From the NCBI GenBank assembly GCA_035279985.1, contig DATEGR010000067.1, positions 1-46,557 on the forward strand: a stretch of DNA of 46,557 nt, given 5' to 3'. Each line of letters opens with the position of its first letter. The first letter of the stretch is position 1. This DNA is from Verrucomicrobiia bacterium. GTDB taxonomy: Bacteria; Verrucomicrobiota; Verrucomicrobiia; Limisphaerales; UBA11358. The notes under the pieces are model-generated. The model worked only from the letters and a program-made list of their open reading frames with translations, was not told the origin of the DNA and searched no databases. Position numbers and translations under genes: made by a program. Below are positions 15,573 to 39,916 of the stretch, piece by piece.

Positions 15573-18299
15573 ATGAAAAAAATTCTATCCATCGCCGTCA
15601 TCGGCAGCGTTCTTTTGAGCGCGGTTCCGTTTGCATCTGCGGTGACTATTTACACCGAAAACTGGGGCACGGGTAACAGTGGTGTTACCGGGAACGGCAA
15701 TATCAATACGGTTGGGTGGACAGCGATTGCCGCGTCACAGAGTGCCGGGCCCTACGTCGGCATCTATACGGCCACCGGCGCGAGCGATCCCACGCTCGGT
15801 CTGGCCTTGCCCGCAAACACGGTTTATTTTACGGGCTTTCAGACCACCAACCTGCCGGGGATGCTTTATACCACAAGCGCTGCGGGATCGGGTGCTGGGG
15901 GTAATTCCAGTTTCGCCAATATTGATCCGACGCTGTACACGAACCTGACCTTTAACCTGGAGGTTCGGGATCCCAATGGAGGCAATCCAGCCACCAACTA
16001 TTTTGCAGTTCAAGTGGGAGGACAATGGTATGTGGCGACCTCTTACCAGTTGCCCGAATACACTGCCGGGTATCCGCAATTTACGAATGCTTCCCTGGTT
16101 TATACCAATCCGGCCAATGTCTGGCAAACCCTGACCATAAACGGTACCACCAATGTAACAATCGGTTCTGTGGCATCTCCCAACTTGACCTCACTCATCA
16201 CCGGCATCGGTATTGTTGAAATCAATACTCCGGGTGGTTTTAATTATAACGAGCTGCTCATCAACCAGGGACCGGGCGATTTCCCGCAGATCGCGCCCAC
16301 CAATACCGCCGTGGCGGTGACCCCGCAATACGTCTACGTTGGCGGCGGGGCCGCGTTTGTATCCACCTTTGCCGGTCCACTGTTGGTTTACCAATGGCAG
16401 ACCAATGGCGTGAATATTAATGGAGGAAGATACCTCGGCACAGCCGGCAACACGATGACTATCACCAACTGTAACCTCGGCGATGCGGGTTCCTTCTACA
16501 TGGTGGTCGTGACGAACAAATTTGGCAGTGCTACCAATAGCGGTCTGCAGTTGATCGTCAGCAATGTGCCTCCTGGTCTTTTGTATGCGGAGAATTTTCC
16601 TTATCTTGGACCTAACGGCAACACCCCTATCACCGGTGTGGGCTGGGTCGTCGCGGCACCGGCCAGCACAGGCATCGGCATTTACCAGGCTGGCGGTGGT
16701 CTTGGCGACGTCTTTTCATATTCTCCCATTGCCACCACCAACGCTTATTACACAACGGATACCAATGACGCAGGAATCTCCGGACTGCCGTTTGTCGATA
16801 TCAATCCCGCCAGTTATCCTTTCGTAACTTTCCAGGCCGGTTTCGTCCCCGGGAATGGCCCCGGGCAGGTTTCCGGAGCCATCTCGGTTTATTGGGCGGT
16901 TAAGATGACGAACGGCTGGTTCTGCTCTGCCCAGCCTCAAGCGATCGATCTCTCGGCGCTAAGCCCTTATCAAAACTATCAATATGGATTCAACCCCGCG
17001 GCGAGCAATTGGAATAACCTCACCATTACCAGCGGCAGTGCCGTAATCGGTGCTCCGGCTGCAAGCCCGTTGACCGGCAATATCATTGGTGCCGGCCTGG
17101 TGGTTGCTCACAATACCGGAACTGGTTCAGACATGAATTTCCAGAGTTTCGAAATCATCACCAACCAGGCGGTGGGCAGGCCGCCGAACATCAACCAGAA
17201 CTATCCGCTTGACGTAACTGTCGCCTCAGGCGGTGGCGCCAGTTTTGGCGTTTCCGCCAGTGGAACATCACCTTTCACTTATAGTTGGACGACAAATGGC
17301 GTCCCTGTTTCCAATGGGGGCAGAATTTCCGGCGCAACCACGCCGACTTTGACAATCGCCGATTTAAATACCAACGATAATAGTCTGCAGATAGTTGCGT
17401 ATGTCACCAACGCTGCTGGCGGTGATAACAGCACTTTATCAGCTGCCGGTGGGCCTACTACACTGACGGTAACCAGCCCTCCCGTTGGCTTCATTTATTC
17501 AGAAGTGTTTCCGTTTGTCGGCCCGGTTGCAGGCAACTACTCGATTAGCGGTGTCGGGTGGACCGAAGCGGTTCCCAGCACTCCCAACGCTCTATTCCAG
17601 GCCGGTACGCCCGGAACGAGCTCGGCAAGCCAGGGAGCAGTTTTTGCCTTTCTGGGAAGCGCGGGCACCACTGTGTATTACGCAACTGCTGCCTCCGATA
17701 CCAATCAATCTGGACTGCCTTTCCCGAATATCGACCTGGCAGCTTATCCAAACTTGAGCATTTCGGCGAGTATTGCGCCAAACTCGGCGTCATCCACCAA
17801 CGTCGCGGCTTACGTGGCGGTGCAACTTAATGGCAACAATTGGTACGTTTCCGCGAATGCCTTGTTGGGGCCGAATGTGGCTTCGAACTCGGTGTACTCC
17901 ACCTACACAATGAGCTTTAATCCGGCCGCGGCGAACTGGAATAATTTGACCGTAACCAGTTCGGGCGGGCTGATCGGGTCGCCGGCAGCCGGCAACTTGA
18001 GCGGTGTCATGACCGGGGCCGGTCTGGTATTCGTCACCGTAGGAAGCGGAGGCACCTTCAACTTTAATAATTTCCAGGTCTCGGACCTCGGAGTCGTGGG
18101 CGGCATCAATGTCGGCGGGGTGACGGGCGGCAACCTCAATCTGTCCTGGGTTGGAAACCCGGCAGTGAGGTTGCAGAGTTCCACCAATTTGAGCAGCAGC
18201 TTGAATTGGCAGGATGTGCCGAACACATACGGGCTGTATTCGCTGCCTGCGCCTGTCACCGGATCCCAGAAATTTTTCCGGTTGAAGAACGGTCCGTAA
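15573..18299 (+). CDS. Large secreted protein: three copies of an unassigned ~200-aa module separated by two Ig-like domains, plus the shared C-terminal FYR-type domain
   Basis: Signal peptide MKKILSIAVIGSVLLSAVPFASA. Modules at residues ~24-232, ~333-532 and ~636-838 share IY[TAS]E..F/W, VGW, SGLPF..ID...YP and FNPAA.NWNNLT[IV]TS. Ig-like segments contain YQWQTNG and YSWTTNG. Tail is LNLSW...LQSSTNLSSSLNWQDV...KFFRLKNGP. Confidence 0.8.
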   Translation: MKKILSIAVIGSVLLSAVPFASAVTIYTENWGTGNSGVTGNGNINTVGWTAIAASQSAGPYVGIYTATGASDPTLGLALPANTVYFTGFQTTNLPGMLYTTSAAGSGAGGNSSFANIDPTLYTNLTFNLEVRDPNGGNPATNYFAVQVGGQWYVATSYQLPEYTAGYPQFTNASLVYTNPANVWQTLTINGTTNVTIGSVASPNLTSLITGIGIVEINTPGGFNYNELLINQGPGDFPQIAPTNTAVAVTPQYVYVGGGAAFVSTFAGPLLVYQWQTNGVNINGGRYLGTAGNTMTITNCNLGDAGSFYMVVVTNKFGSATNSGLQLIVSNVPPGLLYAENFPYLGPNGNTPITGVGWVVAAPASTGIGIYQAGGGLGDVFSYSPIATTNAYYTTDTNDAGISGLPFVDINPASYPFVTFQAGFVPGNGPGQVSGAISVYWAVKMTNGWFCSAQPQAIDLSALSPYQNYQYGFNPAASNWNNLTITSGSAVIGAPAASPLTGNIIGAGLVVAHNTGTGSDMNFQSFEIITNQAVGRPPNINQNYPLDVTVASGGGASFGVSASGTSPFTYSWTTNGVPVSNGGRISGATTPTLTIADLNTNDNSLQIVAYVTNAAGGDNSTLSAAGGPTTLTVTSPPVGFIYSEVFPFVGPVAGNYSISGVGWTEAVPSTPNALFQAGTPGTSSASQGAVFAFLGSAGTTVYYATAASDTNQSGLPFPNIDLAAYPNLSISASIAPNSASSTNVAAYVAVQLNGNNWYVSANALLGPNVASNSVYSTYTMSFNPAAANWNNLTVTSSGGLIGSPAAGNLSGVMTGAGLVFVTVGSGGTFNFNNFQVSDLGVVGGINVGGVTGGNLNLSWVGNPAVRLQSSTNLSSSLNWQDVPNTYGLYSLPAPVTGSQKFFRLKNGP

Positions 18300-18323
18300 A
18301 CAACTGGAACGCAAGTTTGGGAC

Positions 18324-18372
18324 GAAGCTGGAGTTGTTCACACAAAACTGGAATGACTCCAGCTTCAGTTTT
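18324..18372 (+). terminator. Hairpin terminator candidate after the 908-aa gene
   Basis: Perfect 11-bp stem GAAGCTGGAGT / ACTCCAGCTTC with a 21-nt loop, followed by AGTTTT. The long loop lowers confidence. Confidence 0.4.
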
Positions 18373-18409
18373 AGGTTGTAACGGCTGGATCGAGCTAAGC
18401 ATTATTGGA

Positions 18410-19738
18410 ATGAAATTTGCCTGTTTCACTTTAGCGATAGCGGCGCTTTTTGCGCCGGGCGTATCACTCGCGCAGAACAGCTTTATCGCCGGGGCGGACT
18501 TTTCCGATCTGAAATTTTTCGAAGCTCGGGGTATTGCCTACAAGGATGGCGGACAGGTTCAGGACGGGATTCAGATTCTCAAAAATCACGGTATTAATTG
18601 TATCAGGCTGCGGCTCTGGACCAGCAGCCCGGCTCAGGCCAGCGCGGACCCATACAACTACGGCAATAATACCAACTACACCGTGCCACTGGCGGTGCGG
18701 GTCAAAAACGCCGGCTTGCAGTTCATGCTGGATTTTCATTATTCCGACACCTGGGCCGATCCGGGTCATCAAACCACCCCGGCGGCCTGGGCCGGCCTGA
18801 CTTTCGTCCAACTGGTGTCGCAGATGCGCACTTACAACAGCAACACCATCGTCGCTTTCGCGGCCGCGGGGGCAATGCCGGACTACGTCCAGATTGGCAA
18901 TGAAATCACCCACGGCATGTTGTGGACCAATGGACAGCTTACGGGCCCGTGGAGCAGTTCCAACCCATCGTGGATCCGGCTCGGCCAATTGATGAATGCG
19001 GCCATCCAGGGAATCGAGGATGCGACGAATGCTACGGGCGCTAAAATGCCTAAAATCATCGTTCATATTGACAGAGGCGGCGACTGGGGCACGACCCAGG
19101 CGTATTTTGAAAACCTGAATGCTCAAGGAGTGCCTTACGATATCATCGGCGAGAGTTATTACCCCTTCTACCATGGATCACCCACAAATCTGAATATTTG
19201 TCTCAGCAATGCAGCGGTTGAATTCGGCAAACCCATCATCGTCGCTGAGGACGCTTTTCCCTACACCAATACTTGTCCGTCCGCCTGGCTTGGCCAGCTT
19301 TTTGGCTATCCGCCTACGCCGGCTGGTCAGGTCAGTTTCATCGCCGCGCTGGCCAGGATTGTGGAAAGTGTGCCCAACCACCTCGGGGCGGGCTTCGTCT
19401 ATTGGGGAGCAGAGTATCAAGCGGCCAGCGGTGTCAATGAAGCCGGTTTCAATACGGCGTCGTTTTTTGATGCCGGTGGCAATGTTCTGCCGGTGGCCAG
19501 CGCCGTTGGCGGAATGGCCGCCCCACTTTTGATCAGCCCCTCGCTGAATGGTTCGAATCTACAGTTACAGTGGCCATTCAGTGGAGCTGCTTTGACCTTG
19601 ACGACCACAACCACCTTGGCGCCTTCAACCGTCTGGTCGTCGGTGCCCAATACGCCCCAAACCACGGGAGCAGTGTTTACCGTCACCCTGCCGGTGGATT
19701 CCAGCCAAACCCGTTTTTACCGCTTGCAACCGAACTGA
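18410..19738 (+). CDS. Glycoside hydrolase family 53 endo-beta-1,4-galactanase with the shared C-terminal FYR-type domain
   Basis: Signal peptide MKFACFTLAIAALFAPGVSLAQ at ATG 18410 (the track ORF starts at 18206, inside the upstream gene). Motifs FMLDFHYSDTWADPGHQTTPAAW and QIGNEITHGMLW. Tail is LQLQWPFSG...TVWSSVPN...TRFYRLQPN. Confidence 0.85.
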   Translation: MKFACFTLAIAALFAPGVSLAQNSFIAGADFSDLKFFEARGIAYKDGGQVQDGIQILKNHGINCIRLRLWTSSPAQASADPYNYGNNTNYTVPLAVRVKNAGLQFMLDFHYSDTWADPGHQTTPAAWAGLTFVQLVSQMRTYNSNTIVAFAAAGAMPDYVQIGNEITHGMLWTNGQLTGPWSSSNPSWIRLGQLMNAAIQGIEDATNATGAKMPKIIVHIDRGGDWGTTQAYFENLNAQGVPYDIIGESYYPFYHGSPTNLNICLSNAAVEFGKPIIVAEDAFPYTNTCPSAWLGQLFGYPPTPAGQVSFIAALARIVESVPNHLGAGFVYWGAEYQAASGVNEAGFNTASFFDAGGNVLPVASAVGGMAAPLLISPSLNGSNLQLQWPFSGAALTLTTTTTLAPSTVWSSVPNTPQTTGAVFTVTLPVDSSQTRFYRLQPN

Positions 19739-19855
19739 CCGGAGGCAACCGGCAGAGAGATGGATTCCGTGGCAAAAATTTGAATTTAGACGGAATCCAA
19801 CCGATCTCCGATTATTTTGCAAATTGTTGCTGCTCAGTTAGGCTGATGGCAGCCT

Positions 19856-20227
19856 ATGAAAAGGAACATTCGCTCCGCCGCCCGACCGGAGCTGCGCCCG
19901 CGCTTCCGCATCGCCTGTGGAACAAGAATCGCTTTTGGGCCCGGCAAAGCGGATTTGCTGGAGCAAATAGCAGAAACCGGTTCCATCGTCGCGGCTGCCG
20001 CACGCATGGGCATGTCCTATATGCGCGCCTGGTCACTCATCCAGGAAATGAACAAATGCTTTAAACAATCGGTCATTAAAGCCGCCCGCGGCGGTCATGA
20101 GCACGGTGGCGCGGAATTGACTCCGGCAGGGCGCAAAGTGCTGGCATTATACCGGCAGATGGAACACGACAGTCTGAAGGTGATTCGGGTGGACTGGCGG
20201 GCCCTGCAAAAACTGTTGCGTGTATAG
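19856..20227 (+). CDS. ModE-like winged-helix regulator, N-terminal DNA-binding domain only (no Mop domains)
   Basis: 123 aa. GPGKADLLEQIAETGSIVAAAARMGMSYMRAWSLIQEMN ... GGAELTPAGRKVL matches the ModE N-terminal HTH family pattern. Sits immediately upstream of a ModE-box-like palindrome and modABC. Confidence 0.7.
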   Translation: MKRNIRSAARPELRPRFRIACGTRIAFGPGKADLLEQIAETGSIVAAAARMGMSYMRAWSLIQEMNKCFKQSVIKAARGGHEHGGAELTPAGRKVLALYRQMEHDSLKVIRVDWRALQKLLRV

Positions 20228-20267
20228 CTGAAACCATGTGCCCTTCCCGGACAAATGGAAAATAAGT

Positions 20268-20291
20268 CGTTATATTTGACAAAGTATAACG
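20268..20291 (+). promoter_or_regulatory. ModE-box-like palindromic operator CGTTATA-N10-TATAACG
   Basis: Perfect 7-10-7 inverted repeat CGTTATATTTGACAAAGTATAACG. Its 24-nt length and CG-n-TATAT-type half-sites resemble the proteobacterial ModE operator. A TTGACA hexamer sits in its centre. It ends 19 nt before the first gene of the mod operon. Confidence 0.55.
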
Positions 20292-20309
20292 GTCCGGTAA
20301 GTTCGCCCG

Positions 20310-21212
20310 ATGCGAATGATCAAGGGTCGGATTTTTCCCGATATTTCAGTCAACTTACTGCTGTGGGCGCTGATGGCGGTGGTGCCCTGTCGGGCCGATG
20401 GCCTTGAAGGCAACGGTCAGAGGGTTCCGCCCGCTGCGTCACCGGCGGAAAAGTATTTCAGCGACTGGTTTGCGCGCGTGTCCAGAACCCAGGCGGAGCA
20501 GCCGCATTGGATCACCCCGCTGGTGACTGTCACGCCCCGCCTGGAACAGGAACTTCGTTATGACCAGTCATGGGAAACCGTGCCGGGAGGTGCTACTTTG
20601 AAAAGTTTCGGCGGCGGCAAAGGACTGGAGCTGATCCCGGCGGAACCCATCGAGCTGATTTTTGGGGTGCCGGCGTGGGAATCCGAAGACACCTCGCCGC
20701 ACAAGCAAGGCTGGGCCGATGAGAGCTTCCTGCTTAAATACCGCTTCTTGTCCGCCAATGAGGAAGCAGGCAACTACATCCTCACGGCGTTCCTGGGTCT
20801 TTCAGTGCCCACCGGGAGTGCCGACTTCACAACCCATCACTATGCCGTCACTCCCACCATCGCCTTTGGCAAAGGCTGGGGCGATTTCGATTTCCAGACA
20901 ACTTTCGGCGTGTCCGTGCCTGATGAGGGCAGCGCGCCGGCTGGCGCAGGAACGCCGCTATTGCTGAACACGGCGTTTCAATATCGGGTGATGAAAAATC
21001 TTTGGCCGGAAGTGGAAGTCAATTACACTCACTGGCCCAATGGCAAACACGATGGACTGGACCAGGCTTTCATTACCCCGGGGCTGGTGGTTGGGAAAAT
21101 TCCCATCGCAGGTCGCGTGGGACTGACTGTGGGGGCGGGCTATCAGGCCGCCGTGACCGACCATCCGCTTTATCGCCACAATTTTATCCTGACCGTGCGG
21201 GTTCCATTTTAG
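20310..21212 (+). CDS. Putative outer-membrane beta-barrel channel (MetA-pathway/transporter-like fold), first gene of the mod operon
   Basis: Signal peptide. Alternating hydrophobic beta-strand pattern. C-terminal aromatic residue (FILTVRVPF). About 300 aa. Only 9 nt separate it from modA. Confidence 0.5.
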   Translation: MRMIKGRIFPDISVNLLLWALMAVVPCRADGLEGNGQRVPPAASPAEKYFSDWFARVSRTQAEQPHWITPLVTVTPRLEQELRYDQSWETVPGGATLKSFGGGKGLELIPAEPIELIFGVPAWESEDTSPHKQGWADESFLLKYRFLSANEEAGNYILTAFLGLSVPTGSADFTTHHYAVTPTIAFGKGWGDFDFQTTFGVSVPDEGSAPAGAGTPLLLNTAFQYRVMKNLWPEVEVNYTHWPNGKHDGLDQAFITPGLVVGKIPIAGRVGLTVGAGYQAAVTDHPLYRHNFILTVRVPF

Positions 21213-21221
21213 CGGGAATTT

Positions 21222-22019
21222 ATGACAAACCACCGATCCTCCTCGCGGCAGCGAACGGGAAGGATATACCTGTTCTCCCTGGTTATCTGGGCGGGTACCT
21301 TCTTGCTGCCACTGCATTCCGCCTCCTCCAAAGAAGTCATGGTCTTTGCTGCTGCCAGTTTGACCGATAGCCTGAAACAAATTGCCGCCGCCTACAAAAA
21401 AACATCCGGCGATGCCATCACGTTCAACTTCGGCGCCTCCAGCACGCTGGCGCGGCAAATCAAAGCCGGCGCGCCCGCCGACATTTTCTTTTCCGCTGAC
21501 GAAGCGCAAATGAACGCGCTGGCGAAGCGAGGATTGATCAACCCCGCCACGCGCAAGGACCGCCTGGGCAATTCATTGGTCGTCGTCACCCCCCAAGCCA
21601 GTTCGCTGCAAATCACATCAGCGAACGATCTTACCAATGCCGGCATCAAACGCCTCGCGCTCGCCGATCCCGGGGCCGTGCCGGCGGGCGTTTACGCCAA
21701 AGCCTGGCTGGGAAAACGACACCTCTGGTCGGTCATCGAGCCGAAAGTTATTCCGACGGAAAATGTCCGTGCCGCGCTCGCTGCCGTCGCGTCCGGTAAC
21801 GTGGACGCCGGGGTCGTCTATAAAACCGATGCCGTCATCTCCAAACGCGTCAAAATCGCTTATGAAGTTCCGCGCGCTGATGGTCCGGACATCCGTTACC
21901 CGATGGCCTTGGTGAAGGGCTCGCCACAACCCGAGGCCGCCAAAAAGTTGCTGAACTACCTTACCTCCGAAGAAGCTGGACAGGTCTTCACGCGGTATGG
22001 CTTCCTGTTACGGCAATGA
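21222..22019 (+). CDS. modA: Molybdate ABC transporter substrate-binding protein
   Basis: VFAAASLTDSLKQIAAAYKKTSGDAITFNFGASSTLARQIKAGAPADIFFSADE is a typical ModA sequence. Followed by modB and modC. Confidence 0.9.
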   Translation: MTNHRSSSRQRTGRIYLFSLVIWAGTFLLPLHSASSKEVMVFAAASLTDSLKQIAAAYKKTSGDAITFNFGASSTLARQIKAGAPADIFFSADEAQMNALAKRGLINPATRKDRLGNSLVVVTPQASSLQITSANDLTNAGIKRLALADPGAVPAGVYAKAWLGKRHLWSVIEPKVIPTENVRAALAAVASGNVDAGVVYKTDAVISKRVKIAYEVPRADGPDIRYPMALVKGSPQPEAAKKLLNYLTSEEAGQVFTRYGFLLRQ

Positions 22020-23751: not shown

Positions 23752-23772
23752 AACTGCTGCTAAAAACTTCCC

Positions 23773-24012
23773 ATGCGCGTGCTTTTTTTCACCCAACTCA
23801 AGGACGCCACCGGTTGCGATTCGGTTGAACTCGCGCCAGCCTCGCCGCTGAACGGCGAACAGCTTTGGGCGGAATTGCTGAAGCAGTTTCCAAAGCTTGC
23901 GGCATATCGATCCTGTGTCCGGCTCGCAAAAAATTACGAGTACGCCGCGCCCGAAACAACATTTGTCAACGCCGACGAGGTGGCATTGATTCCGCCCGTG
24001 TCGGGTGGCTGA
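23773..24012 (+). CDS. moaD: Molybdopterin synthase sulfur-carrier subunit
   Basis: 79 aa with ubiquitin-like size and a C-terminal Gly-Gly (IPPVSGG). Lies next to the MoaE domain gene. Confidence 0.8.
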   Translation: MRVLFFTQLKDATGCDSVELAPASPLNGEQLWAELLKQFPKLAAYRSCVRLAKNYEYAAPETTFVNADEVALIPPVSGG

Positions 24013-24021
24013 ATTTCTCGC

Positions 24022-25755: not shown

Positions 25756-25757
25756 TT

Positions 25758-25781
25758 GTAGCAGCGGACGTGAGTCCGCTC
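25758..25781. repeat. REP-like element: GTAG followed by a hairpin (AGCGGAC-GTGA-GTCCGCT)
   Basis: GTAGCAGCGGACGTGAGTCCGCTC lies 3 nt after the moaE-moeA stop. 7-bp stem with a GTGA tetraloop and no U-tract. Confidence 0.4.
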
Positions 25782-26771: not shown

Positions 26772-26775
26772 GAAA

Positions 26776-27753: not shown

Positions 27754-27801
27754 CCTGACCCCGCCGGAACCTGTATCAGGAAGCCGCAACCGGGCAATGG
27801 T

Positions 27802-27915
27802 TTAAGGGGCGTGACTGACCACGACGCGGCGAAACGCCTGCATACTGAACGTCAGCTGAGTTCGAAGAAGCGAACCGAAGGACAAAAAATAACCCCCAGG
27901 AAAGTCAAACAGCTT
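27802..27915 (-). pseudogene. Decayed 3' remnant of a gene encoding the shared C-terminal FYR-type domain
   Basis: The minus-strand frame reads ...LTFSMQAFRRVVVSHAP*, matching the GH5 C-terminus ...GFYRVVVSHAP*. At DNA level, 27786..27828 matches 34341..34383 at 37 of 43 positions, including the stop codon and 3' flank. No plausible start codon or upstream domain. Confidence 0.45.
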
Positions 27916-29794: not shown

Positions 29795-30019
29795 CAGGCA
29801 GCGTTCTTTTTGGAGAAAAAGTTTTGAAAGAACCGTTGTTGTTCGCACGAGTTAATAGTAGATAACCAGGTTGAGTGGCATTGAAAGTTGGGCACTGAAT
29901 GCGTCGTATGAACCAGGACAGTTGAGTCTATGACAAAACAACACGCGCTATGGGGTTCGGTTCGGGCAAGACATTGCGGCCCAAGGGATTCCGGTTGCGC
30001 CCCAAATCATCCAGCCTTT

Positions 30020-31000
30020 ATGAAGACTTTTACTGACTTTCTCGCTCATCCGGAAAACACCCGGCGAACATCATTGGCTGGCGGTTGTCCTGACCGCGGT
30101 TTTACGCTCGTTGAACTGCTGGTAGTGCTGGGAACGGTCGCCGTGCTGGCATTGGTGCTGGTGCCGGCGCTGGCGAGCACCAAAACAGACACTTGGCTAA
30201 TCCAATGCCAAAACAACCTGAAACAGCTCCAGGTGGGCTTCCAACTTTTTGCGCGAGACCACAATGATATGTTCCCGCCTGCCGGAGACCAGACGTTGAG
30301 CGGCAGACAATTGGCGTGGGACGCCTATATTCACCACTATTTTGGCGATACCAATTCAGACGCTTCGTGGACCGCTGGAATTCTGCTTGCCGGCTCCTCA
30401 CCAACGATGGCAAGGCTCGAATTATGCCCGGCGGATCGATTTCCAAAAGTGATCTGGCTGACCAGCCCGCCTGCATTCGCGCTAAGGTCTTATGCTGTGA
30501 ACAGTGTGGGGCCCAATTATGGAACTCAATTCCAGATCAGTACCTCGGGCGGGACCTATCCCTTGCCCGATTTAAACCAGCCGGGTTATCATGGTGTCGG
30601 AATTTATTGGCAGAGCTCGGGTGTGTTGCCGGACTGGGATGCGAAAGGTTACAAATCGTCCGTGGTAAAGGACCCCGGCGGCACCATCCTGTTGTGCGAA
30701 GAAACCGGCGGCCAGCAGTGTGTAGGCAACATTTGGACCTGCATTTGCAACGGCCCGCAAACCTCGCAACATGGCGGCGTCAATGGCAACCTTTACCAGA
30801 TTGACACGACCTCCATCCCTCAAAATCCCAATAGCAGCGCCGGTGTAAATCAGGGGAATCTATTATACAACTCGCATGGAGGCCGATTCAACTACGCTTT
30901 CCACGATGGTCACGTGGCCGCGCTCAAAATCGAGCAAACGGTCGGCAGCGGAACCATCAGCGCACCTGAAGGCATGTGGACCGTGACGCCGGGGGACTGA
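30020..31000 (+). CDS. Prepilin-type N-terminal cleavage/methylation domain protein, DUF1559-like with exact H-X9-DG motif
   Basis: G|FTLVELLVVLGTVAVLALVLVPALASTK. CQNNLKQLQVGFQLFARDHND. C-terminal HGGRFNYAFHDGHV (H-X9-DG). ATG 30020 preferred over the track's 29930. Confidence 0.8.
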   Translation: MKTFTDFLAHPENTRRTSLAGGCPDRGFTLVELLVVLGTVAVLALVLVPALASTKTDTWLIQCQNNLKQLQVGFQLFARDHNDMFPPAGDQTLSGRQLAWDAYIHHYFGDTNSDASWTAGILLAGSSPTMARLELCPADRFPKVIWLTSPPAFALRSYAVNSVGPNYGTQFQISTSGGTYPLPDLNQPGYHGVGIYWQSSGVLPDWDAKGYKSSVVKDPGGTILLCEETGGQQCVGNIWTCICNGPQTSQHGGVNGNLYQIDTTSIPQNPNSSAGVNQGNLLYNSHGGRFNYAFHDGHVAALKIEQTVGSGTISAPEGMWTVTPGD

Positions 31001-31003
31001 ACG

Positions 31004-34000
31004 ATGGCGATTCATGAACTATCCCGGCAGCGATTAAGCAAAGCAAAACTATTAATGACACAAGCCATGAAAACGAGAACTGACATCGGCAGCGAATTCA
31101 CGTTCCGAAACGTGCGCATCGGGCTGGCAGTCGCGAAGTTTTTCGGCAGGAATCTCATTGTGGCGGTCTGGTTGTCCGTGTTCGGTATTTTCGTTGCCTC
31201 GGTCAGTGCGCTGCCCGTGGCGTTGATCTCGGCGCGAAACCCCTCCGTGCCGCTGTCCACAGGGGGCGACGGCAATTCCATCGTTTCCAGCGTGAGTCCC
31301 AATGGCCGTTTTGTGGTTTTTACCAGCGCAGCCAATGACTTGACGCCCGGCGGCAACAATCTTTACAGCCTGAACGTTTTTCTCCGTGATCGGACCGGCC
31401 AAACCACCACGCTGATCAGCGGCAACTCGAATGGCACTGGCGGCGGAAACGGCGATTCGATGTCCGGCCAGGTTTCCGCCAATGGCCGCTATGTTGTGTT
31501 TCAAAGCGATGCCAGCGACCTCGTGCCCGGAGATACCAACGGGGCCAGCGACATCTTCGTGCATGATACCTATACGGACACAACCCGGCTCATCAGCGTG
31601 GCGATGGACGGCGGTTTTGCCAATGGGGCTTCCACCGACCCGGTTATGACGCCGGACGGCACCTGCGTGGCCTTCATCAGCAGTGCGTCGGACCTGGTTC
31701 CGAACGACACCAATGGCATACCCGATGTGTTCGTGCGGGATTTGCTTACCCAAACGACCTGGCTGGTGAGCGTCGGGGCGCTCCTTCCCTCCGGCAGCCT
31801 CAACCCGATCATGGCGACATCGGTCATCACGCCGGATGGCCGGTACGTGGCATTTTTCAGTCTCGCCACAAATCTGGTGCCTGGAGTTCCCGGCACCTCC
31901 GCCGGCGAGGTGTATGTGCGCGACCGGGCAACCGGGAAGACGACCTGGGCCAGCACCAATGCTGCGGCGATTGTGTCTGCCGCACTCGGCCTGAGCAATG
32001 CGCCGGCTTATCATCCGCGGCTGAGCGACGACGGTCGCGACGTTGCCTTCAAAGCCGGCTCAACCAGTCAGACTGGCGCGGTGGTCATCCTGGAATATGA
32101 TTCGACAACCGCCACGACAACGGTGATCAACACGAATGGTATTGGTTGGTACCCCGATCTCAATGACGACTATGGCCCGGTAATGACGCCAGACGGCCGT
32201 TTCATTGCCTTTGCCACACACGAGGGTACCGTCGATTCGGGTTATTCCAGTGTTCATGTTTGGGATACCCAAAGCGCAATAGACACACTTGTCAGCGGCA
32301 GTGGCAGCGGCGGCCTGACCAATACGGTTTCCTATATGCCGGTCATCAGCACGAACGGCCAGTTCGTGGTGTTCTTGAGCAATGCCACCAATCTGACCGC
32401 CAACGCGGTGTCCAATGGCTTTCATATTTACCGGCGTAATCTGCAATCCGGCACCAAGCAATTGGCAGACGTGGACACCAATGGCGTCGGTTCGACCGAT
32501 GACGAACTGACATCCTTAAGCCTGAGCGCGGATGGCCAATTCGTTGCCTTCAGCAGCCCGGACGGGAGCCTTGTCAACCTGGATATAAACCATGCAGACG
32601 ACGTTTTCGGTCGCGACTTCGTTGCCGGGGCCACGGAAATAATTTCAGAACGCGACCCGGCGGTGATTCCTCAGTCGGGCGACGGCTTCAGCGTATTGGG
32701 TCAATGGTCAGTCAGTGCCAACGGGCAGTGGGCGGCGTTTGCCAGCGCGGCAGATGATCTGGTGCCAAATGAGACGAACCAGGAGCCCGACGTTTTCGTG
32801 CGTGACCGGGTGAACGGTACCAATCTGCTGGTCAGCGCCGGGCTGAACGGCAGTTCGGCCCTGGGTGGCGGTTCTGGAAACGCGGTCATCAGCCCGGATG
32901 GCCGTTATGTGGCGTTCCTCAGCGGGGCCAGCAACCTGGTCGCCGGTCCAATCAACACCTGCGCCAACGTGTTCCGCCGCGATCTGCAAACGGGCGCCAC
33001 TGTGCTGGTCAGTGTTGGAACTGATGGCATCAGCCCCGGGAACAGCGACGCTTCCGATTTGGCCATGAGTTCAGATGGGCAGTATATTGCTTTTGTCAGC
33101 CGGGCCATTAATCTGGTTTCGGGAATCACCAGCGGGGTGAACACGTATTGGCGGGACGTGAACTTGGGACAGACCGTGGGACTGAAAGGTGCCAATTATT
33201 ATGCTTTTGGTCCTTCCCTGAGCAGCGACGGTCGTTATGTCGCCTACGCGTTTGGTGTTTCTGCTTCAACCGTCAGATTACAAATCCGGGATACCCAAGT
33301 GGGAACCGACATCTATACCAATTCGGGAACAGTAACGTCGGCAGCGATTGACCCGACCGGGAGCAAAATCTTTTATCGCATTGCCAACACTCTCTACGTG
33401 GACAACATCAATCCCAGAACAAATCTTTTCTCGATTTCGACTACATCCACCTCTCCGATTCGGAATGGCGGCGGCTGGAGCGATGATGGCCGCTGGCTGA
33501 CATTTGTATCCACCGCCAACTTGACAGGTGGAGACGACGGCACCAACAAGGTTTACCTGCTCGATTTCCAGACCGGCACGCTCACCCTGGTCGGTCTGGC
33601 CGGTCCGGGGACCGGCAGCATGGATGCGCTTTCGGACGGGCCGGTCATGAGCGGCAACGGCCGGTTCGTCGCCTATCGCAGCGTCGTGGTCAACACGGTC
33701 ATCGGGGACAACACGGCACCCCCGAACCTGTTTCTGCTCGACCGCCTGACGGGGTCCAGCACGGTGCTGGCCATCGGGCCGAACAGTTCGGGCCCGATAG
33801 TATGGACGTCCCGACCGGTGATCTGCGACAATGGGGCGACGGTGGCTTTCCTGGATATGGGTTCGAGTCTGGTGGTCGGCGACCTCAATCGGGAACCCGA
33901 TGTCTTCGGCGCTTCCGTGGATATCAATGCCGCCCTCGTGGACAGTGATGCCGATGGAATTCCAGACTGGTGGATGATGAAATATTTCGGTCATCTGACC

Positions 34001-34324
34001 GGACAGACCAATGACCTGTCGCTCGCGCAGGATGACGCCGACGGCGATGGCGTTTCCAACTTGCAGGAATATCTGGCCGGCACCAGCCCGATTGACCCCA
34101 CCTCGGTGTTCAAGCTTGCACCAACAGTGCCGGTCAACAACACCGTGGGCCTGACCTGGCCCGCGGTGATGGGCCGGAGCTACCAAATCCAGTTCAAGAC
34201 CAATTTGACCGATTCCGTGTGGTTCACCCTGCCAAGTGGTGCCTGGGTAATGGGCGGGCAAGGTCACTATCTTGCCCCGGCACCTGTACCCAACGGCTTT
34301 TACCGTGCCATGGAGTCGAATTAA
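31004..34324 (+). CDS. Giant secreted/anchored protein with ~16 PD40/TolB-like beta-propeller repeats, a TSP3-like acidic Ca-binding segment and the shared C-terminal FYR-type domain
   Basis: N-terminal TM/signal anchor. Repeats of the form [VS][MIS][ST].[DN]G[RQ][FY][VI][AV]F.S.A..L and ...DVFVRD. DSDADGIPDWW ... DDADGDGVSNLQEYLAGTSPIDP. Tail VGLTWPAVMGRSYQIQFKTNLTDSVWFTL...NGFYRAMESN. Starts 4 nt after the DUF1559 gene stop. Confidence 0.8.
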   Translation: MAIHELSRQRLSKAKLLMTQAMKTRTDIGSEFTFRNVRIGLAVAKFFGRNLIVAVWLSVFGIFVASVSALPVALISARNPSVPLSTGGDGNSIVSSVSPNGRFVVFTSAANDLTPGGNNLYSLNVFLRDRTGQTTTLISGNSNGTGGGNGDSMSGQVSANGRYVVFQSDASDLVPGDTNGASDIFVHDTYTDTTRLISVAMDGGFANGASTDPVMTPDGTCVAFISSASDLVPNDTNGIPDVFVRDLLTQTTWLVSVGALLPSGSLNPIMATSVITPDGRYVAFFSLATNLVPGVPGTSAGEVYVRDRATGKTTWASTNAAAIVSAALGLSNAPAYHPRLSDDGRDVAFKAGSTSQTGAVVILEYDSTTATTTVINTNGIGWYPDLNDDYGPVMTPDGRFIAFATHEGTVDSGYSSVHVWDTQSAIDTLVSGSGSGGLTNTVSYMPVISTNGQFVVFLSNATNLTANAVSNGFHIYRRNLQSGTKQLADVDTNGVGSTDDELTSLSLSADGQFVAFSSPDGSLVNLDINHADDVFGRDFVAGATEIISERDPAVIPQSGDGFSVLGQWSVSANGQWAAFASAADDLVPNETNQEPDVFVRDRVNGTNLLVSAGLNGSSALGGGSGNAVISPDGRYVAFLSGASNLVAGPINTCANVFRRDLQTGATVLVSVGTDGISPGNSDASDLAMSSDGQYIAFVSRAINLVSGITSGVNTYWRDVNLGQTVGLKGANYYAFGPSLSSDGRYVAYAFGVSASTVRLQIRDTQVGTDIYTNSGTVTSAAIDPTGSKIFYRIANTLYVDNINPRTNLFSISTTSTSPIRNGGGWSDDGRWLTFVSTANLTGGDDGTNKVYLLDFQTGTLTLVGLAGPGTGSMDALSDGPVMSGNGRFVAYRSVVVNTVIGDNTAPPNLFLLDRLTGSSTVLAIGPNSSGPIVWTSRPVICDNGATVAFLDMGSSLVVGDLNREPDVFGASVDINAALVDSDADGIPDWWMMKYFGHLTGQTNDLSLAQDDADGDGVSNLQEYLAGTSPIDPTSVFKLAPTVPVNNTVGLTWPAVMGRSYQIQFKTNLTDSVWFTLPSGAWVMGGQGHYLAPAPVPNGFYRAMESN

Positions 34325-34356
34325 TCGCCCCTGGAAATCGGCGACCGGGTTGCGGT

Positions 34357-35697
34357 TTAAGGCGCGTGACTGACCACGACGCGATAGAAGCCTTGCGGAT
34401 CTGATCCCAGACTTACCTTGAAAGGCGCATTGGTGCCCACGGAGCCCGGGGAGGCCACGTTGGTAACGGCCGAACCCAAATTTATCCAATTGGCGCTGGA
34501 CGTCAGGTCGGTTGAATACTGGACCTGATAGACAAAACCCTGTGGAGCAGCGTATTGAAATTGGGTGTTGTTGTTGACGAGTTGCAGTGTGGGGACTGGC
34601 AGCGGGAAGAACTGTTTAATGATGCTCATGGTCGGCTGGTCCTGCTGGCCAGACGTGCCGATGTTCGATGGTTCTATCGGGAAGGTGGGACTGCTGCCCC
34701 ACCACGGGCCGCCGCCCCAATAGGTCCAGCCAAGCCACACGTCCGCATTGGTTGAAATGTACGAGAGCATATTGGTCAACGCCGTACCACCATTCGGTAC
34801 TGAACCGAGGGTATTGCCGGGAACGGCGTACTCGCCAAGGAAAGCTTTCACATTGTAGGCCCTGGCCCAAGCGGTGAAATTGGTCAGGCGCTGCCAACCG
34901 ATATCCGTGCTGACGATGCCGTCGTTGCTGCCTGACCCGTCGGTATCCAGGTATTGATGAACCTCGACAACATAATTGTTGGCCGGATCCACAAGGTTAA
35001 GCATGGCATTGGAGTTCGCTGCTCCATAACTGTCGGATTGCGACCAGGTCCACGCGCCGGTCCATCGGTTGCCGGGTACAAAAATCAGATTACTGGCGCC
35101 CGCCGCCCGAATGCCCGCGATGGCCGCGTTTTCAGCCGCAATCATTTGCGTTTGTTGCAAAGCGTTCGGCTCGTTCATCAGGCCGAAAATGACATTGGGA
35201 TTATTCTTAAAGCTGCTGATATTGGCGACCTGATACCAGAAATTGGAAAACGCTGAGTTGGGCACAACGGAATTTCCGATTACACCGACGGTGCCGCTCT
35301 GCATGGTAGGGTACGTACTGTTGTCCGGCCAGTAGCGCTGGAAGTTGTGAGGATCGAGAATGACGCTCATACCCTGACCGCTGGCGTAAGAAACAAAAGA
35401 CACCAGCCGGTTGGATTCGGCGGAGTTGAACGCCGCGTTGTTGGTACGCTGTAACCGTTCCCAACGAAACGGGAGCCGGATGATGTTCATCCCCTTGCTC
35501 TGGTAGTAATTTACTTCCGTGTTGTTCGGATAAATATATTGGCTGCCATACGCGCCGGGTAAAGCTCCACCCGAAGAGATGACATCGCCGAATTCGGCCC
35601 CGGAAAGATTGACACCGGCGTATTGGATGTCGGCGGAACTGGAAAAAACGAAGGCAAAGCCAAAAAGAACTAAACTCGAGAGAATGCGCTTGTTCAC
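34357..35697 (-). CDS. Glycoside hydrolase family 5 endoglucanase-like enzyme with the shared C-terminal FYR-type domain
   Basis: Signal peptide (GTG start). GVNLSGAEFG, IIRLPFRWERLQ, LMNEPN (acid/base), FLGEYA (nucleophile). Tail YQVQYSTDLTSSANWINL...QGFYRVVVSHAP. Confidence 0.85.
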   Translation of the reverse strand: MNKRILSSLVLFGFAFVFSSSADIQYAGVNLSGAEFGDVISSGGALPGAYGSQYIYPNNTEVNYYQSKGMNIIRLPFRWERLQRTNNAAFNSAESNRLVSFVSYASGQGMSVILDPHNFQRYWPDNSTYPTMQSGTVGVIGNSVVPNSAFSNFWYQVANISSFKNNPNVIFGLMNEPNALQQTQMIAAENAAIAGIRAAGASNLIFVPGNRWTGAWTWSQSDSYGAANSNAMLNLVDPANNYVVEVHQYLDTDGSGSNDGIVSTDIGWQRLTNFTAWARAYNVKAFLGEYAVPGNTLGSVPNGGTALTNMLSYISTNADVWLGWTYWGGGPWWGSSPTFPIEPSNIGTSGQQDQPTMSIIKQFFPLPVPTLQLVNNNTQFQYAAPQGFVYQVQYSTDLTSSANWINLGSAVTNVASPGSVGTNAPFKVSLGSDPQGFYRVVVSHAP

Positions 35698-35860
35698 AAG
35701 TAAAACAATGTCGGGTGAATGTAGAGAGGTTAACCGGTCCTTCAGCCCGGTTCAATCAAAAATGCACAAAATCCCGATATTTTCCCTCAAGTTTTCACCA
35801 AAAGGGTTTGACTCCGCCGATTATTCTCTGTCGAAGCAGATGGAGTTTTCGCTGATATGC

Positions 35861-37354
35861 CTAACGCTTCAGTTTTCTTTCCAGAATCTCGCCGGCCAGC
35901 GCCGGATTGGCTTTGCCCTTGCTCAATTTCATGACCTGACCCTTGAGGAAATTCAGCGCGGCGGTTTTTCCGGCCTTGAAATCGGCCACCGGACCGGGAT
36001 TGGCCGCCATCGCCTCATCACAGAATTTTTCGATCGCACCGGTGTCGCTGACCTGGGCGAGGCCTTTTTCCTGAACGATCGTTGTGGGTGATTTGCCCGT
36101 GTCGAACATTTCAGCAAACACCTGTTGTGCCGTGGAACTGCTGATGGTTTTGGCTTCAACGAGATTAACCAATTCAATGAATGCCTCCGGCTTGAATTTC
36201 AAATGCTGTAGGACAGGCGTCGCGCCTGTCTCTAACTTTTCTGTTTTGCCTTGAATGGAGACAGGCGCGACGCCTGTCCTACACTCATTCGCCTCCGCCA
36301 GTTTGGCCCGCAAATTATTGATGACCCAGTTCGCCACGGCCTTCGGATTCTTCGATTGCTTTGCAATGCCTTCAAAATAATTGCCCAACGATACATCGTT
36401 CTTGAATGTCTCGGCGTCACCGGCGGGCAGGCTGTAATCTTTCATAAACCGCTGCTTGCGCGCCAGCGGCAATTCGACCGCCCGGGATTTTACGTCGGCC
36501 ACCCATTGTTCCGTCGGTTCAAACGGCATCAGGTCCGGGTCGGGGAAATAGCGGTAATCGTGCGCGAATTCCTTGGTGCGCATTTCTTCGGTCACCCCCG
36601 CCACGTCGTCCCAACGGCGCGTGGATTGAATCAGTTTGCCGCCCTTTTTCAGCACTTCAATCTGGCGCGGGATTTCGTATTCCAGCGCGCGGCGCACGCC
36701 GGAGAAACTGTTCATGTTCTTGATTTCAATCTTAGCGCCCAACTCCTTCGTGCCGACCGGGCGCACGCTCACGTTCACGTCGCAGCGCACCATGCCCTTT
36801 TCCATGTCGCCATCACTGATGTTTCCATAACGAAGAATCTCCACCAACGCATTGAGGTATGCGTAGGCCATGTCCGCGCCGCTGAGGTCGGGTTCGGAGA
36901 CAATTTCCATAAGCGGCACGCCGGCGCGGTTGAAATCCACGCCGCTGTTGCGCTCGAAATGGAAGCTCTTGCCCACGTCTTCCTCCAGATGCGCGCGGGT
37001 AATGCGGATGCGGGAGATGCCGCCGTTGAACTCGAAATCCACGTAGCCATTCGTGGTGGACGGTTGGTCGTATTGGGTGATCTGGTAATTCTTCGGCATG
37101 TCCGGATAGAAATAATTCTTCCGGTCGAACTTCGCGCGCGCGGGAATCTGACAGTTCAACAACAAACCGGTGAGCGCGGTGAGCCTCAGCGCTTCCGCGT
37201 TGGCGGCGGGCAGCACCCCCGGCAAGCCGAGACAGACGGGGCAGACGTTGGTGTTGGGCGGCGCGCCGAAGGCGTTGGCGCAGCCGCACCACATCTTCGA
37301 TTTGGTTTTAAGCTGGACGTGGGTTTCCAGGCCGATGACCGCTTCGTAATCCAT
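35861..37354 (-). CDS. gatB: Asp-tRNA(Asn)/Glu-tRNA(Gln) amidotransferase subunit B, carrying a 25-aa in-frame insertion
   Basis: YEAVIGLETHVQLKTKSKMWCGC ... NVCPVCLGLPGVLP ... RITRAHLEEDVGK ... C-terminal GatB/YqeY tail KGKANPALAGEILERKL. The insertion is described under 36208..36282. Confidence 0.92.
   Translation of the reverse strand: MDYEAVIGLETHVQLKTKSKMWCGCANAFGAPPNTNVCPVCLGLPGVLPAANAEALRLTALTGLLLNCQIPARAKFDRKNYFYPDMPKNYQITQYDQPSTTNGYVDFEFNGGISRIRITRAHLEEDVGKSFHFERNSGVDFNRAGVPLMEIVSEPDLSGADMAYAYLNALVEILRYGNISDGDMEKGMVRCDVNVSVRPVGTKELGAKIEIKNMNSFSGVRRALEYEIPRQIEVLKKGGKLIQSTRRWDDVAGVTEEMRTKEFAHDYRYFPDPDLMPFEPTEQWVADVKSRAVELPLARKQRFMKDYSLPAGDAETFKNDVSLGNYFEGIAKQSKNPKAVANWVINNLRAKLAEANECRTGVAPVSIQGKTEKLETGATPVLQHLKFKPEAFIELVNLVEAKTISSSTAQQVFAEMFDTGKSPTTIVQEKGLAQVSDTGAIEKFCDEAMAANPGPVADFKAGKTAALNFLKGQVMKLSKGKANPALAGEILERKLKR
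36208..36282. repeat. REPIN-like double palindrome (two inverted 25-nt GTAG-hairpin arms + 25-nt spacer) inside gatB
   Basis: 36208..36232 GTAGGACAGGCGTCGCGCCTGTCTC is the exact reverse complement of 36258..36282. Each arm is itself GTAG + hairpin (GACAGGCG-TCG-CGCCTGTC). Total length is 75 nt (25 codons) with no stop codon, read as CRTGVAPVSIQGKTEKLETGATPVLQ. Confidence 0.85.
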
Positions 37355-37480
37355 AATTGCGGGAGAAGTTTAGCCGTGGACGGACGCGGATGCACACGGA
37401 TTTTTCAATCGCAGGAAAGACAGTGCGACAATTCCAGGGCGGCCATGTTGTCTGTTTACGGAAGAACTGACCGGAAGTCT

Positions 37481-39916
37481 TCATGGAAACGTTCTGGCCC
37501 GATAGAAGCGATCAGGGAAAAGTGCCGCATCCGGGTCGAGGAAATCAAACGGGCTTGAGCTGTTTGTGGCCAATGGTGCCCAGGACGTGAGATTAGTCGA
37601 CGCTTCGATCGTATAGGTTGTGCCGAGACTGGCGGTGACGCGACACTGGAACGGGCCGCCGGCTGACCACATGGGATGGTCCAAACGTGTTACCGCCGGG
37701 GGAGTGAATGTCAATTGTCCGTTATATCGACCGATGCCGGAGGAGGGTTTGTCTCCGGCCACAAGTAACCGGCCACCCGCATAGATGTCGTTTCCGGCGT
37801 TAGCCACCGCAGTCATGAAAGCGGGACTGAGGCCGGACGCGCTTCTCTGGAGTCCGCCGCCGCCCAAAGCGGACCAGCTTGCCCCATCCCATTTTGCGAT
37901 GCCGTTGGCCGTCACGCCACCGGCATTGGTAAAGCTCCCGACGATATACAGATTGGCACCGTCATACGCCATGGCCAAGACTGCCGGAGAACTGCCGCCG
38001 GTCACCCCGCTGCCCAATCCCGACCAACTGCTGTAACCTTGGGCCAGGCGATTGACGCTGGTGCCGCCGGCCGTGGTGAAAGTGCCACCGATGTACAGGG
38101 CGGTCGGGGTGATCGGAATAATGGAATTCACCGTGCCGTTGACACCATTACTCGAAGTACTATTCAGCGGTCCCCAGGTGGTTCCGTTCCATTGGGCGAT
38201 GTGGTTGGCGTTGACCCCGCCGGCAATGGTGAAATTTCCACCGACAAAAGAAACCCCGGGAGTGATGGCAATGGCCGTCACGTTGCTGTTCAAGCCACTG
38301 CCCAAGGCCAACCAGCTGCTCCCGTCCCATTTCGCAATGTAATTCGCACTGCCACCGCCTGCGCTGGTAAAACTTCCGCCGACGTAAACATCACTGCCGC
38401 TGAGCGCGATGGCTGACGCAGGTCCGTTCAGACCGGAGCCCAAGGCCGACCAGCCGCTGCCATCCCATTTGGCCACATTATTGGCGCTGACCCCGCCGGC
38501 ATTGGTAAAATTTCCTCCCACATAGACATTGCTGCCGCTGACCGCGATGGCTGAAACAACTGTGGTCGAAAAATCATTGGATCCTCTTACTCCGCTGCCC
38601 AAGGGTGACCAATTCGTTCCGTCCCATCGGGCGATGTAATTGGCCTCCACCCTCCCCACCGATCGGAAAAACCCGCCGGCGTAGATGTCAGCTCCATTTA
38701 CTGCCAGAGCGCGCACGGAATTCAGCACCGGACTGGGACCAAAAGCCCCTTCGTCAAAGCCGTCGCCAATTGTTGCCCAGCTCGAACCGTTCCAAATCGC
38801 CAGGCCGCCGGCTGGCAAAGCTCCAGCCTGATCAAAAATTCCTCCAACGTAAATCTGCCCGCCTGACCCAACGGCCAGGCTAAGCACATAGCCCGGTTGG
38901 GTTTCGCTCGTAATGCCGGCGGACAAGTTCGTCCAGGAATTACCATTCCACCCGGCAATGTTTTGGGCAGACACGCCACCCGCATTGGTGAAACCGCCCC
39001 CGACCAGAAGTTCATTGCCGATACGGGCAATGGTATAAATCACACCGAAGCCTCCCGAAACTCCGCCGCCGAGTGCCGACCAATTGCTTCCATCCCATTT
39101 CGCAATATTGGTCACGGCAACGTTTCCGGCAGTCACAAACTGGCCGCCAACATAGATATTGCTGCCGTCGAGCAGGATGTCCCCAACGCCGCCAGTGGTG
39201 TCCCCGATGCCACCGTTAAACCCGGACCAATTCGTGCCATCCCATTTGGCCAGATTGATCGCCGCCACACCGCCGGCGTTGGTGAACGTGCCGCCGACAT
39301 AAAGGTTTGTCCCGTCGGTCCTCAATACTTTTACCAACACGTTGCTCGCTCCGACGACACCGCTGCCCAACGGCAACCAGTTCGTTCCGTCCCACCGGGC
39401 AAGGTGGTTGATCGCCACGGCTCCGGCGTTGGTGAAATCACCCCCGGCGTAAAGAACGCCGCCGAAAAACGTCAGGGTGAACACATTGCCATGAAGCCCC
39501 GACCCCAATGAAGACCAATTTGTGCCGTCCCACCGGGCAACATTGGTCACACTCAGGCCCCCGGCGCTGATCATGGATCCGCCAACATATACATCGCTGC
39601 CGCGATACACCATTGCCCACGCAATGTCGGTGGCTCCCAGGCCGCTCCCCAGGGCTGACCAGCGCAACCCATCGAATCTCGCCACCCCGTTGACGATGAC
39701 CCCTCCAACCGTTCTAAAATTACCACCCACGTAAACGTCACTGCCGTTCGTGGAAACCGTATAAACATCCGCATCGGTGCCCGGCGGACCAAACTGGAAG
39801 TCCCAATGTTCATCACCGCTGACGCCGCGCGTGCTTACCGGCAGCCCGAAAGCGGCCACCACTAGCAGCAAAACCGGGAATACAGAATTCGAAGCTGGTC
39901 TTTCCTTGATCGACAT
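37481..39916 (-). CDS. Secreted beta-propeller repeat protein (~14 Kelch/galactose-oxidase-like blades) with the shared C-terminal FYR-type domain
   Basis: Signal peptide. Repeats of ~45-50 aa with the pattern YVGG.FT.AGGV.A..IA.WDG..WS.LGSG. Tail YTIEASTNLTSWAPL...DRFYRARTFP. Confidence 0.8.
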   Translation of the reverse strand: MSIKERPASNSVFPVLLLVVAAFGLPVSTRGVSGDEHWDFQFGPPGTDADVYTVSTNGSDVYVGGNFRTVGGVIVNGVARFDGLRWSALGSGLGATDIAWAMVYRGSDVYVGGSMISAGGLSVTNVARWDGTNWSSLGSGLHGNVFTLTFFGGVLYAGGDFTNAGAVAINHLARWDGTNWLPLGSGVVGASNVLVKVLRTDGTNLYVGGTFTNAGGVAAINLAKWDGTNWSGFNGGIGDTTGGVGDILLDGSNIYVGGQFVTAGNVAVTNIAKWDGSNWSALGGGVSGGFGVIYTIARIGNELLVGGGFTNAGGVSAQNIAGWNGNSWTNLSAGITSETQPGYVLSLAVGSGGQIYVGGIFDQAGALPAGGLAIWNGSSWATIGDGFDEGAFGPSPVLNSVRALAVNGADIYAGGFFRSVGRVEANYIARWDGTNWSPLGSGVRGSNDFSTTVVSAIAVSGSNVYVGGNFTNAGGVSANNVAKWDGSGWSALGSGLNGPASAIALSGSDVYVGGSFTSAGGGSANYIAKWDGSSWLALGSGLNSNVTAIAITPGVSFVGGNFTIAGGVNANHIAQWNGTTWGPLNSTSSNGVNGTVNSIIPITPTALYIGGTFTTAGGTSVNRLAQGYSSWSGLGSGVTGGSSPAVLAMAYDGANLYIVGSFTNAGGVTANGIAKWDGASWSALGGGGLQRSASGLSPAFMTAVANAGNDIYAGGRLLVAGDKPSSGIGRYNGQLTFTPPAVTRLDHPMWSAGGPFQCRVTASLGTTYTIEASTNLTSWAPLATNSSSPFDFLDPDAALFPDRFYRARTFP

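Follow-up and report, generated by a model that had tools for sequence, protein, structure and literature searches.

A shared F-Y-R-terminated domain on diverse exported proteins of Verrucomicrobiota, a possible module for retention at the cell envelope

Results

Five proteins of the window share a homologous C-terminal domain

The window analyzed here is the whole 46,557-bp contig DATEGR010000067.1 of a metagenome-assembled genome (MAG) that carries the NCBI label Verrucomicrobiae bacterium, with the proteins HKW28126-HKW28143. Five of its genes encode proteins that end in a related domain, which we call the FYR domain after a conserved F-Y-R motif close to its end (Table 1). All five carriers have signal-peptide-like N-termini on direct reading of their translations. 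Pfam matches are restricted to the N-terminal parts of the proteins: the GH53 match (3e-85) extends over residues 27-362 of its carrier, leaving the tail outside, and the GH5 match is confined to residues 47-328. The final 60-80 residues of each protein fit a pattern that had been proposed in a preliminary description of this DNA. By translation, the carriers end in SQKFFRLKNGP (908-residue carrier), TRFYRLQPN (GH53), NGFYRAMESN (PD40), QGFYRVVVSHAP (GH5) and DRFYRARTFP (propeller), each followed by the stop codon.

Table 1. Coordinates of the FYR domains and of two further features in the window
Feature	Gene	Position	Strand	Basis
FYR domain, 908-aa Ig I-set carrier	15573-18299	18114..18296	+	foreign-only profile i-E 2e-9, ORF residues 855-913
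FYR domain, GH53 endo-galactanase	18407-19738	19517..19735	+	foreign-only profile i-E 1e-12
FYR domain, 1106-aa PD40-repeat protein	31004-34324	34121..34321	+	foreign-only profile i-E 7.7e-16
FYR domain, GH5 cellulase-family enzyme	34357-35697	34360..34599	-	foreign-only profile i-E 3.5e-14
FYR domain, 811-aa Rax2/DUF5122 beta-propeller protein	37481-39916	37484..37699	-	foreign-only profile i-E 4.2e-13
GH5-paralog remnant		27799..27888	-	translations, blastn, local alignments
PEP-CTERM protein		13330..14094	+	C-terminus VVPEPVASAFLGLGALLLIVRRRVFPAR, then stop: VPEP, hydrophobic stretch, then RRR

Hidden Markov models (HMMs) built from four of the tails recovered the left-out one among 670 six-frame open reading frames (ORFs) for every tail except that of the propeller protein (E 1e-4 to 1e-7 for the other four). 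We also used a foreign-only profile, an HMM made from 82 domain copies of unrelated metagenome proteins and containing no sequence of the window. Among the window ORFs this profile detected all five tails, with independent E-values (i-E) between 7.7e-16 and 2e-9, and no further ORF at E<1. Because it matches all five tails and no other ORF of the window, the tails are confirmed as one homologous domain of ~70 residues, as the single pattern of the preliminary description had implied.

That description had also called the domain unassigned. This is borne out by Pfam-A and NCBIfam 20.0, which contained no model for it when searched with the five proteins, the isolated tails and 87 diverse copies taken singly. 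The NCBI annotation of the carriers reads 'hypothetical protein' or gives the name of the catalytic domain alone. In the literature on Verrucomicrobia sorting and C-terminal domains, choice-of-anchor domains and FYR-type motifs, we did not find the domain described.

Several features of the individual carriers are recorded here. The 908-residue protein consists of three ~300-residue repeats, in which Pfam covers only the Ig I-set segments; the repeat unit looks like an uncharacterized domain, and close orthologues of the protein occur in metagenomes (P0003-P0019). The longest ORF of the GH53 gene opens with TTG at 18206, within the preceding gene (stretch 18206-18406, + strand). The ATG at 18407, with an obvious signal peptide (MKFACFTLAIAALFAPGVSLAQ) encoded right behind it, is the more likely start. 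In the PD40 protein, acidic repeats (DSDADGIPDWW...DDADGDGVSNLQEY), which we take to be TSP3-like, lie directly upstream of the tail (residues ~985-1035; window ~33956-34108, + strand). A weak NCBIfam match to an Amuc_1099 pilus-like system family was also obtained (E 6e-5, under the family cut-off). A similar layout occurs in the fragment P0002, and P0238 has a Pfam match to bacterial TSP3.

Occurrence, position and copy number of the FYR domain

A crude profile built from the five window sequences matched at least 5,397 cluster representatives at E<=1e-3 in a search space of 1.84 billion representatives of 50%-identity clusters. For the distribution in genomes, one genome per GTDB species was scanned with the consensus domain, using seeds on internal peptides and hence blind to position. 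This yielded 80 loci, 70 of them labeled Verrucomicrobiota (Limisphaerales, Pedosphaera, Chthoniobacterales, Akkermansia, Prosthecobacter, Luteolibacter); the other 10 are MAGs with different labels. Every carrier with a source name belongs to Verrucomicrobiota. A crude hydrophobicity heuristic classified 28 of 49 carriers as signal-peptide-like, compared to 41 of 214 other ORFs. The proteins to which the domain is attached, hereafter passengers, include glycoside hydrolases, propellers, PD40 proteins, subtilisin or P-domain proteases, esterases, FGE-sulfatase-like proteins and adhesin-like proteins, among them PATR and giant ones. The domain is thus a widely reused module on varied passengers, in agreement with the earlier proposal that it is appended to diverse exported proteins. 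At five carriers in 46.5 kb, its density in the window is high.

The 80 genome loci contain 92 carrier ORFs, of which 88 have a single copy of the domain and 87 (95%) have the stop codon at most 5 residues past it. Carriers usually run on for 4-5 more residues beyond the Arg of F-Y-R, and in many of them the last one is a Pro. Likewise, the domain forms the protein end in 77 of 79 short metagenome proteins found with a broad profile and in 132 of the 149 best-scoring representatives. The latter are multi-copy, with 2-10 copies in tandem or interspersed, and 289 of their 489 copies are internal (more than 40 residues from the C-terminus). In giant proteins the domain serves as a repeated building block, at times alternating with other domains. 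Placement at the N-terminus, directly after the signal peptide, was found in 5 of the 92 genome-sample ORFs. In three of them (L051, L072 and L079) the domain precedes an FGE-sulfatase/SUMF1-like domain, recognized by eye from the motif GYRLPTEAEWE; in L077 it precedes an esterase-like domain and in L045 an unknown one. These five are the sole non-terminal single copies in the sample.

Internal and terminal copies have practically identical consensus sequences, and F-Y-R-[VLI] is equally conserved in both. F-Y-R is therefore a strand motif of the fold rather than a terminal recognition tag, and the 3-7 residues that follow it are the end of the last beta-strand. Although the great majority of carriers have the domain at the extreme C-terminus, the idea of a strictly C-terminal tag fails on the arrays and the N-terminal copies. 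HMM matches at internal positions, which the preliminary description had named as an outcome that would speak against it, do occur, in the tandem arrays and directly after signal peptides.

Predicted fold and relation to known families

The family consensus reads ...L.W....G..Y.[LV][QE]..[ST][ND]L..W........T.........RFYR[VLA]xxx(P). Its conserved residue types are W, Y, R, N/D and Q; several positions are near-invariant, the Arg at 98%. AlphaFold2 modeled the PD40 tail from a 91-sequence alignment as all-beta with six main strands, at a predicted local distance difference test score (pLDDT) of 81.5, which supports the beta-rich character suggested at the outset. The GH5 tail, modeled from 18 sequences, reached a pLDDT of 69.

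Weak Foldseek matches (E 0.07-1) were to Fn3 and Ig domains (template modeling score 0.4-0.6) and to C-terminal beta-sandwiches of glycoside hydrolases. Against PDB sequences, the family profile gave weak, near full-length alignments to FN3con (E 0.05) and to an Fn3-like protein of C. thermocellum (E 0.07). In the HMMER alignment with FN3con, the conserved Trp falls on strand B, the Tyr on strand C and RFYRV on the F strand (YEFRV). On this alignment the FYR family would stop at the start of the Fn3 FG loop, like an Fn3 domain that lacks this loop and the G strand; we treat this as a weakly supported lead, not a result. An hhalign comparison with the two Fn3 domains of locus L032 covered strands A-C only, at a probability of 4%, and the Pfam fn3 profile matched neither the tails (E<=10) nor the 87 copies (E<=1). 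The fold is probably Fn3/Ig-like. Relative to Fn3/Ig modules (PF00041), the FYR domain appears to share the all-beta sandwich, the Trp and Tyr in the FN3con register and the capacity for tandem repetition. It differs in its length (~72 residues versus ~90), in its strong C-terminal preference and in the missing fn3 match.

The best PDB sequence match of the family profile was a marginal one of 45 residues (E 1.2e-3) to the ~137-residue Glucanase/Chitosanase chain of 2rv9/4zxe, a discoidin-type (CBM32) chitosan-binding module. F5_F8_type_C matched one of the 87 copies (E 0.05). No Pfam model of a carbohydrate-binding module (CBM) recurred among these copies, AlcCBM31 appearing in 3 of 87 at E>=0.008, and none of the CBM families with demonstrated binding was matched over its full length. 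PPC (PF04151) and dockerin were absent from the Pfam matches of the tails and the 87 copies.

SLH, LysM and CWB2 are non-covalent surface-anchoring modules, present singly or as terminal tandem arrays. Like the bacterial pre-peptidase C-terminal domain PPC, they are autonomous units of small size, found on many unrelated exported enzymes, in most cases at a terminus and at times in several copies. The FYR domain resembles them in architecture. In contrast to them, it belongs to another phylum and envelope type, and neither the tails nor the 87 copies have a Pfam match to these families.

The FYR domain shares its slot with other C-terminal modules

The preliminary description had drawn analogies to the C-terminal domains (CTDs) of the type IX secretion system (T9SS) and to PEP-CTERM. 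The type A CTD of the T9SS (Por_Secre_tail, PF18962/TIGR04183) is, as predicted for the FYR domain, a folded beta-sandwich of ~70-90 residues. It is located, as the FYR domain is in most carriers, at the extreme C-terminus of signal-peptide proteins with diverse passengers, and both are present in many copies per genome. Tandem arrays and N-terminal copies set the FYR domain apart from the T9SS CTD. Verrucomicrobiota are not known to have a T9SS. A sequence relation between the two was not detected: the hhalign probability for the family and 20 T9SS CTDs was 0.5%, and PF18962/TIGR04183 matched none of the tails or 87 copies.

To compare C-terminal modules on one passenger, the Rax2/DUF5122 propeller was searched without its tail. 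It has thousands of homologues, of which the best 120 were examined. The FYR domain forms the end of 75 of these; PF18962 is present on 14, with several more T9SS-like ends recognized by eye. In about 6 of the 120, a short [VI]YLP[LI]I[VL]R motif forms the C-terminus. One passenger thus carries different C-terminal modules by lineage, and where some lineages have a proven sorting domain, others have the FYR domain. The T9SS analogy stands in this respect and finds no counterpart at the level of sequence. The YLPLI-type ending, in which 1-3 residues follow the motif, was seen in P0263, P0287, P0317, P0320, P0337 and P0360; it is apparently unnamed and may be the sorting signal of another lineage.

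PEP-CTERM resembles the FYR domain in being a C-terminal element of many unrelated exported proteins of Verrucomicrobiota, and it occurs on the same contig (Table 1). However, PEP-CTERM is a short linear signal composed of a PEP motif, a transmembrane helix and a basic tail. All five FYR tails lack the motif, the hydrophobic helix and the basic tail and are predicted to be folded, so that the analogy does not extend to these features.

Other features of the window

A decayed sixth copy of the domain had been suspected at 27802. This feature is instead the remnant of a GH5 paralog with an internal deletion, and not a decayed domain, judging from nucleotide alignments and translations. Window positions 27799-27828 (- strand) are identical in 29 of 30 nt to the 3' end of the GH5 gene and encode FRRVVVSHAP followed by a stop, and blastn aligned the remnant with that 3' end at 86% identity over 43 nt. 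Positions 27834-27888 (- strand) match the signal-peptide region at the 5' end of GH5 in 38 of 55 nt, in a different frame; the 5'/3' junction is thus out of frame. The remnant, located in the intergenic gap between a MoaA-like gene and a sigma-factor gene, retains just the final ~10 codons, corresponding to the last strand of the FYR domain.

The use of PEP-CTERM and prepilin-type signals in the neighborhood, noted previously, was substantiated. From the PEP-CTERM gene in Table 1 it follows that the organism equips other exported proteins with a sorting signal of the exosortase type, and N_methyl matches are present in 14525-15481 and 29930-31000. A shared passenger between the PEP-CTERM protein and the 908-residue carrier was ruled out, since the two have no similarity to each other.

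The stretch 259-12557 holds a galactan-utilization-like cluster. It contains a pair of GH2 genes, another GH53 (3019-4377) and a 760-residue protein without Pfam match; a histidine kinase with PA14 and a response regulator of the LuxR type come next. This GH53 and the 760-residue protein have signal-peptide-like N-termini and no FYR tail; thus, only some exported enzymes carry the domain. Genes for a GMC oxidoreductase, a beta-lactamase-fold protein, a GNAT protein, molybdenum-cofactor proteins and ABC transporters lie in the rest of the window. Secretion machinery, including T9SS genes such as SprA, PorV and PorU, was not found in the 46.5-kb window, the one contig of the MAG that the analysis covered.

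Discussion

The FYR domain is a single homologous family, abundant in metagenomes, with a phylum range centered on Verrucomicrobiota and a predominantly terminal position, which has tandem and N-terminal exceptions and takes the place of a T9SS CTD on a shared passenger. The reading we prefer, and hold tentatively, is that it is an autonomous Fn3/Ig-like module that retains or localizes exported proteins at the cell envelope. According to this proposal, Verrucomicrobiota would attach the module to Sec-exported proteins of every kind, nearly always as the last element. After export it would hold or position the passenger at the cell surface by binding one common partner in the envelope, whether glycan or protein, in the role that T9SS CTDs or PEP-CTERM play on other proteins. 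We infer that the module binds a ligand and controls localization. Retention at the envelope is favored because a module that can be multi-copy and stand at either end, yet is mostly terminal, resembles non-covalent surface-retention modules. The tandem arrays, the placement after signal peptides and the shared consensus of internal and terminal copies provide a better fit to binding or retention than to a one-shot signal. The idea of the preliminary description is thus upheld in part. Of the alternatives that it joined (secretion, sorting or surface attachment), attachment agrees best with the data, and the internal copies contradict a strict C-terminal tag.

Several observations weigh against retention by an Fn3/Ig-like module. 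The preference for the extreme C-terminus exceeds what is usual for binding modules and is expected of a signal recognized by its free C-terminus. Terminal and internal copies are moderately separable on held-out proteins (area under the receiver operating characteristic curve 0.74-0.81), and a final Pro is present in 40% of terminal copies as compared to 12% at the equivalent internal position; both hint at some specialization of terminal copies. In addition, the taxonomic and positional statistics come from genomes sampled with a single consensus subfamily as seed and may not extend to the whole family. As to the fold, Foldseek returned no significant neighbor in the PDB for either AlphaFold2 model (best E 0.07-0.3).

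One alternative is a dedicated secretion or sorting signal, in which the folded domain, as a functional analogue of the T9SS CTD, would be recognized and perhaps removed by a putative outer-membrane translocon or sortase-like machinery of Verrucomicrobiota, the internal copies being spacers of the same fold. The extreme C-terminal position in 95% of carriers, with the stop 4-5 residues past F-Y-R, the replacement of a T9SS CTD on homologous passengers, the multitude of unrelated passengers with very high usage in a 46.5-kb contig and the often Pro-ending, partly distinguishable terminal copies would all be understandable on such a scheme. It does not readily explain why tandem and N-terminal copies bear the same conserved motif. 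Moreover, the domain has neither a sequence relation to T9SS CTDs nor a match to an NCBIfam sorting domain, no candidate machinery was found within the window, and no conserved cleavage motif was noticed in the tails. On balance we regard a signal of this kind as rather unlikely, yet as a serious competitor of the retention reading. Alternatively, the domain might be a passive structural module, an Fn3-like spacer or a solubility or stability domain without targeting function that became C-terminal through the ease of domain accretion at the 3' end of genes. The weak alignments with FN3con and the C. thermocellum protein, the Foldseek matches to Fn3/Ig domains and glycoside hydrolase beta-sandwiches, and the use as a building block in giant proteins are in line with this possibility, but at the C-terminal extremity of a protein there is nothing for a spacer to hold apart. 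Neither the 95% terminal preference nor the replacement by bona fide sorting domains would be expected of a neutral module, and the near-invariant Arg and the Phe point away from the core-facing Tyr and Val, a face assigned from the FN3con alignment only. We therefore consider a purely passive role unlikely.

A CBM that targets enzymes to plant or algal polysaccharide would account for the domain on GH5 and GH53 and for the conserved W, Y, R, N/D and Q residues, and the best PDB sequence match points in the same direction. However, that similarity spans part of a domain twice the size, recurrent Pfam CBM matches are missing among the 87 copies, and most carriers are not glycoside hydrolases, ranging from propellers and PD40 proteins to proteases, esterases, FGE-sulfatase-like and PATR adhesin-like proteins. 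This makes the substrate-binding reading very improbable. Both the structural Fn3-like module and the CBM fit less well than envelope retention or a secretion signal.

A further, more speculative proposal, which we consider doubtful, is that a putative surface-display or secretion pathway specific to Verrucomicrobiota uses the FYR domain for cargo recognition or attachment, which would make the domain the functional counterpart of the T9SS CTD. If the fold really is Fn3 without the G strand, docking might occur via the open edge of the last FYR strand.

Verrucomicrobiota rank among the main polysaccharide degraders of soil, water and the gut, and how they place their many exported enzymes and adhesin-like proteins on the outer membrane or beyond it is largely obscure. 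If the pathway proposal were true, the FYR domain would provide a T9SS CTD counterpart in a phylum whose outer-membrane route for most exported enzymes stays obscure. In either case the domain marks a large and easily recognized set of exported proteins, with five on this contig and thousands of metagenome clusters. A profile of the family would improve annotation and delimit the proteins of the phylum that are candidates for surface location or secretion. The partner of the domain could also be approached with it: a ligand in the case of an anchor, machinery in the case of a signal.

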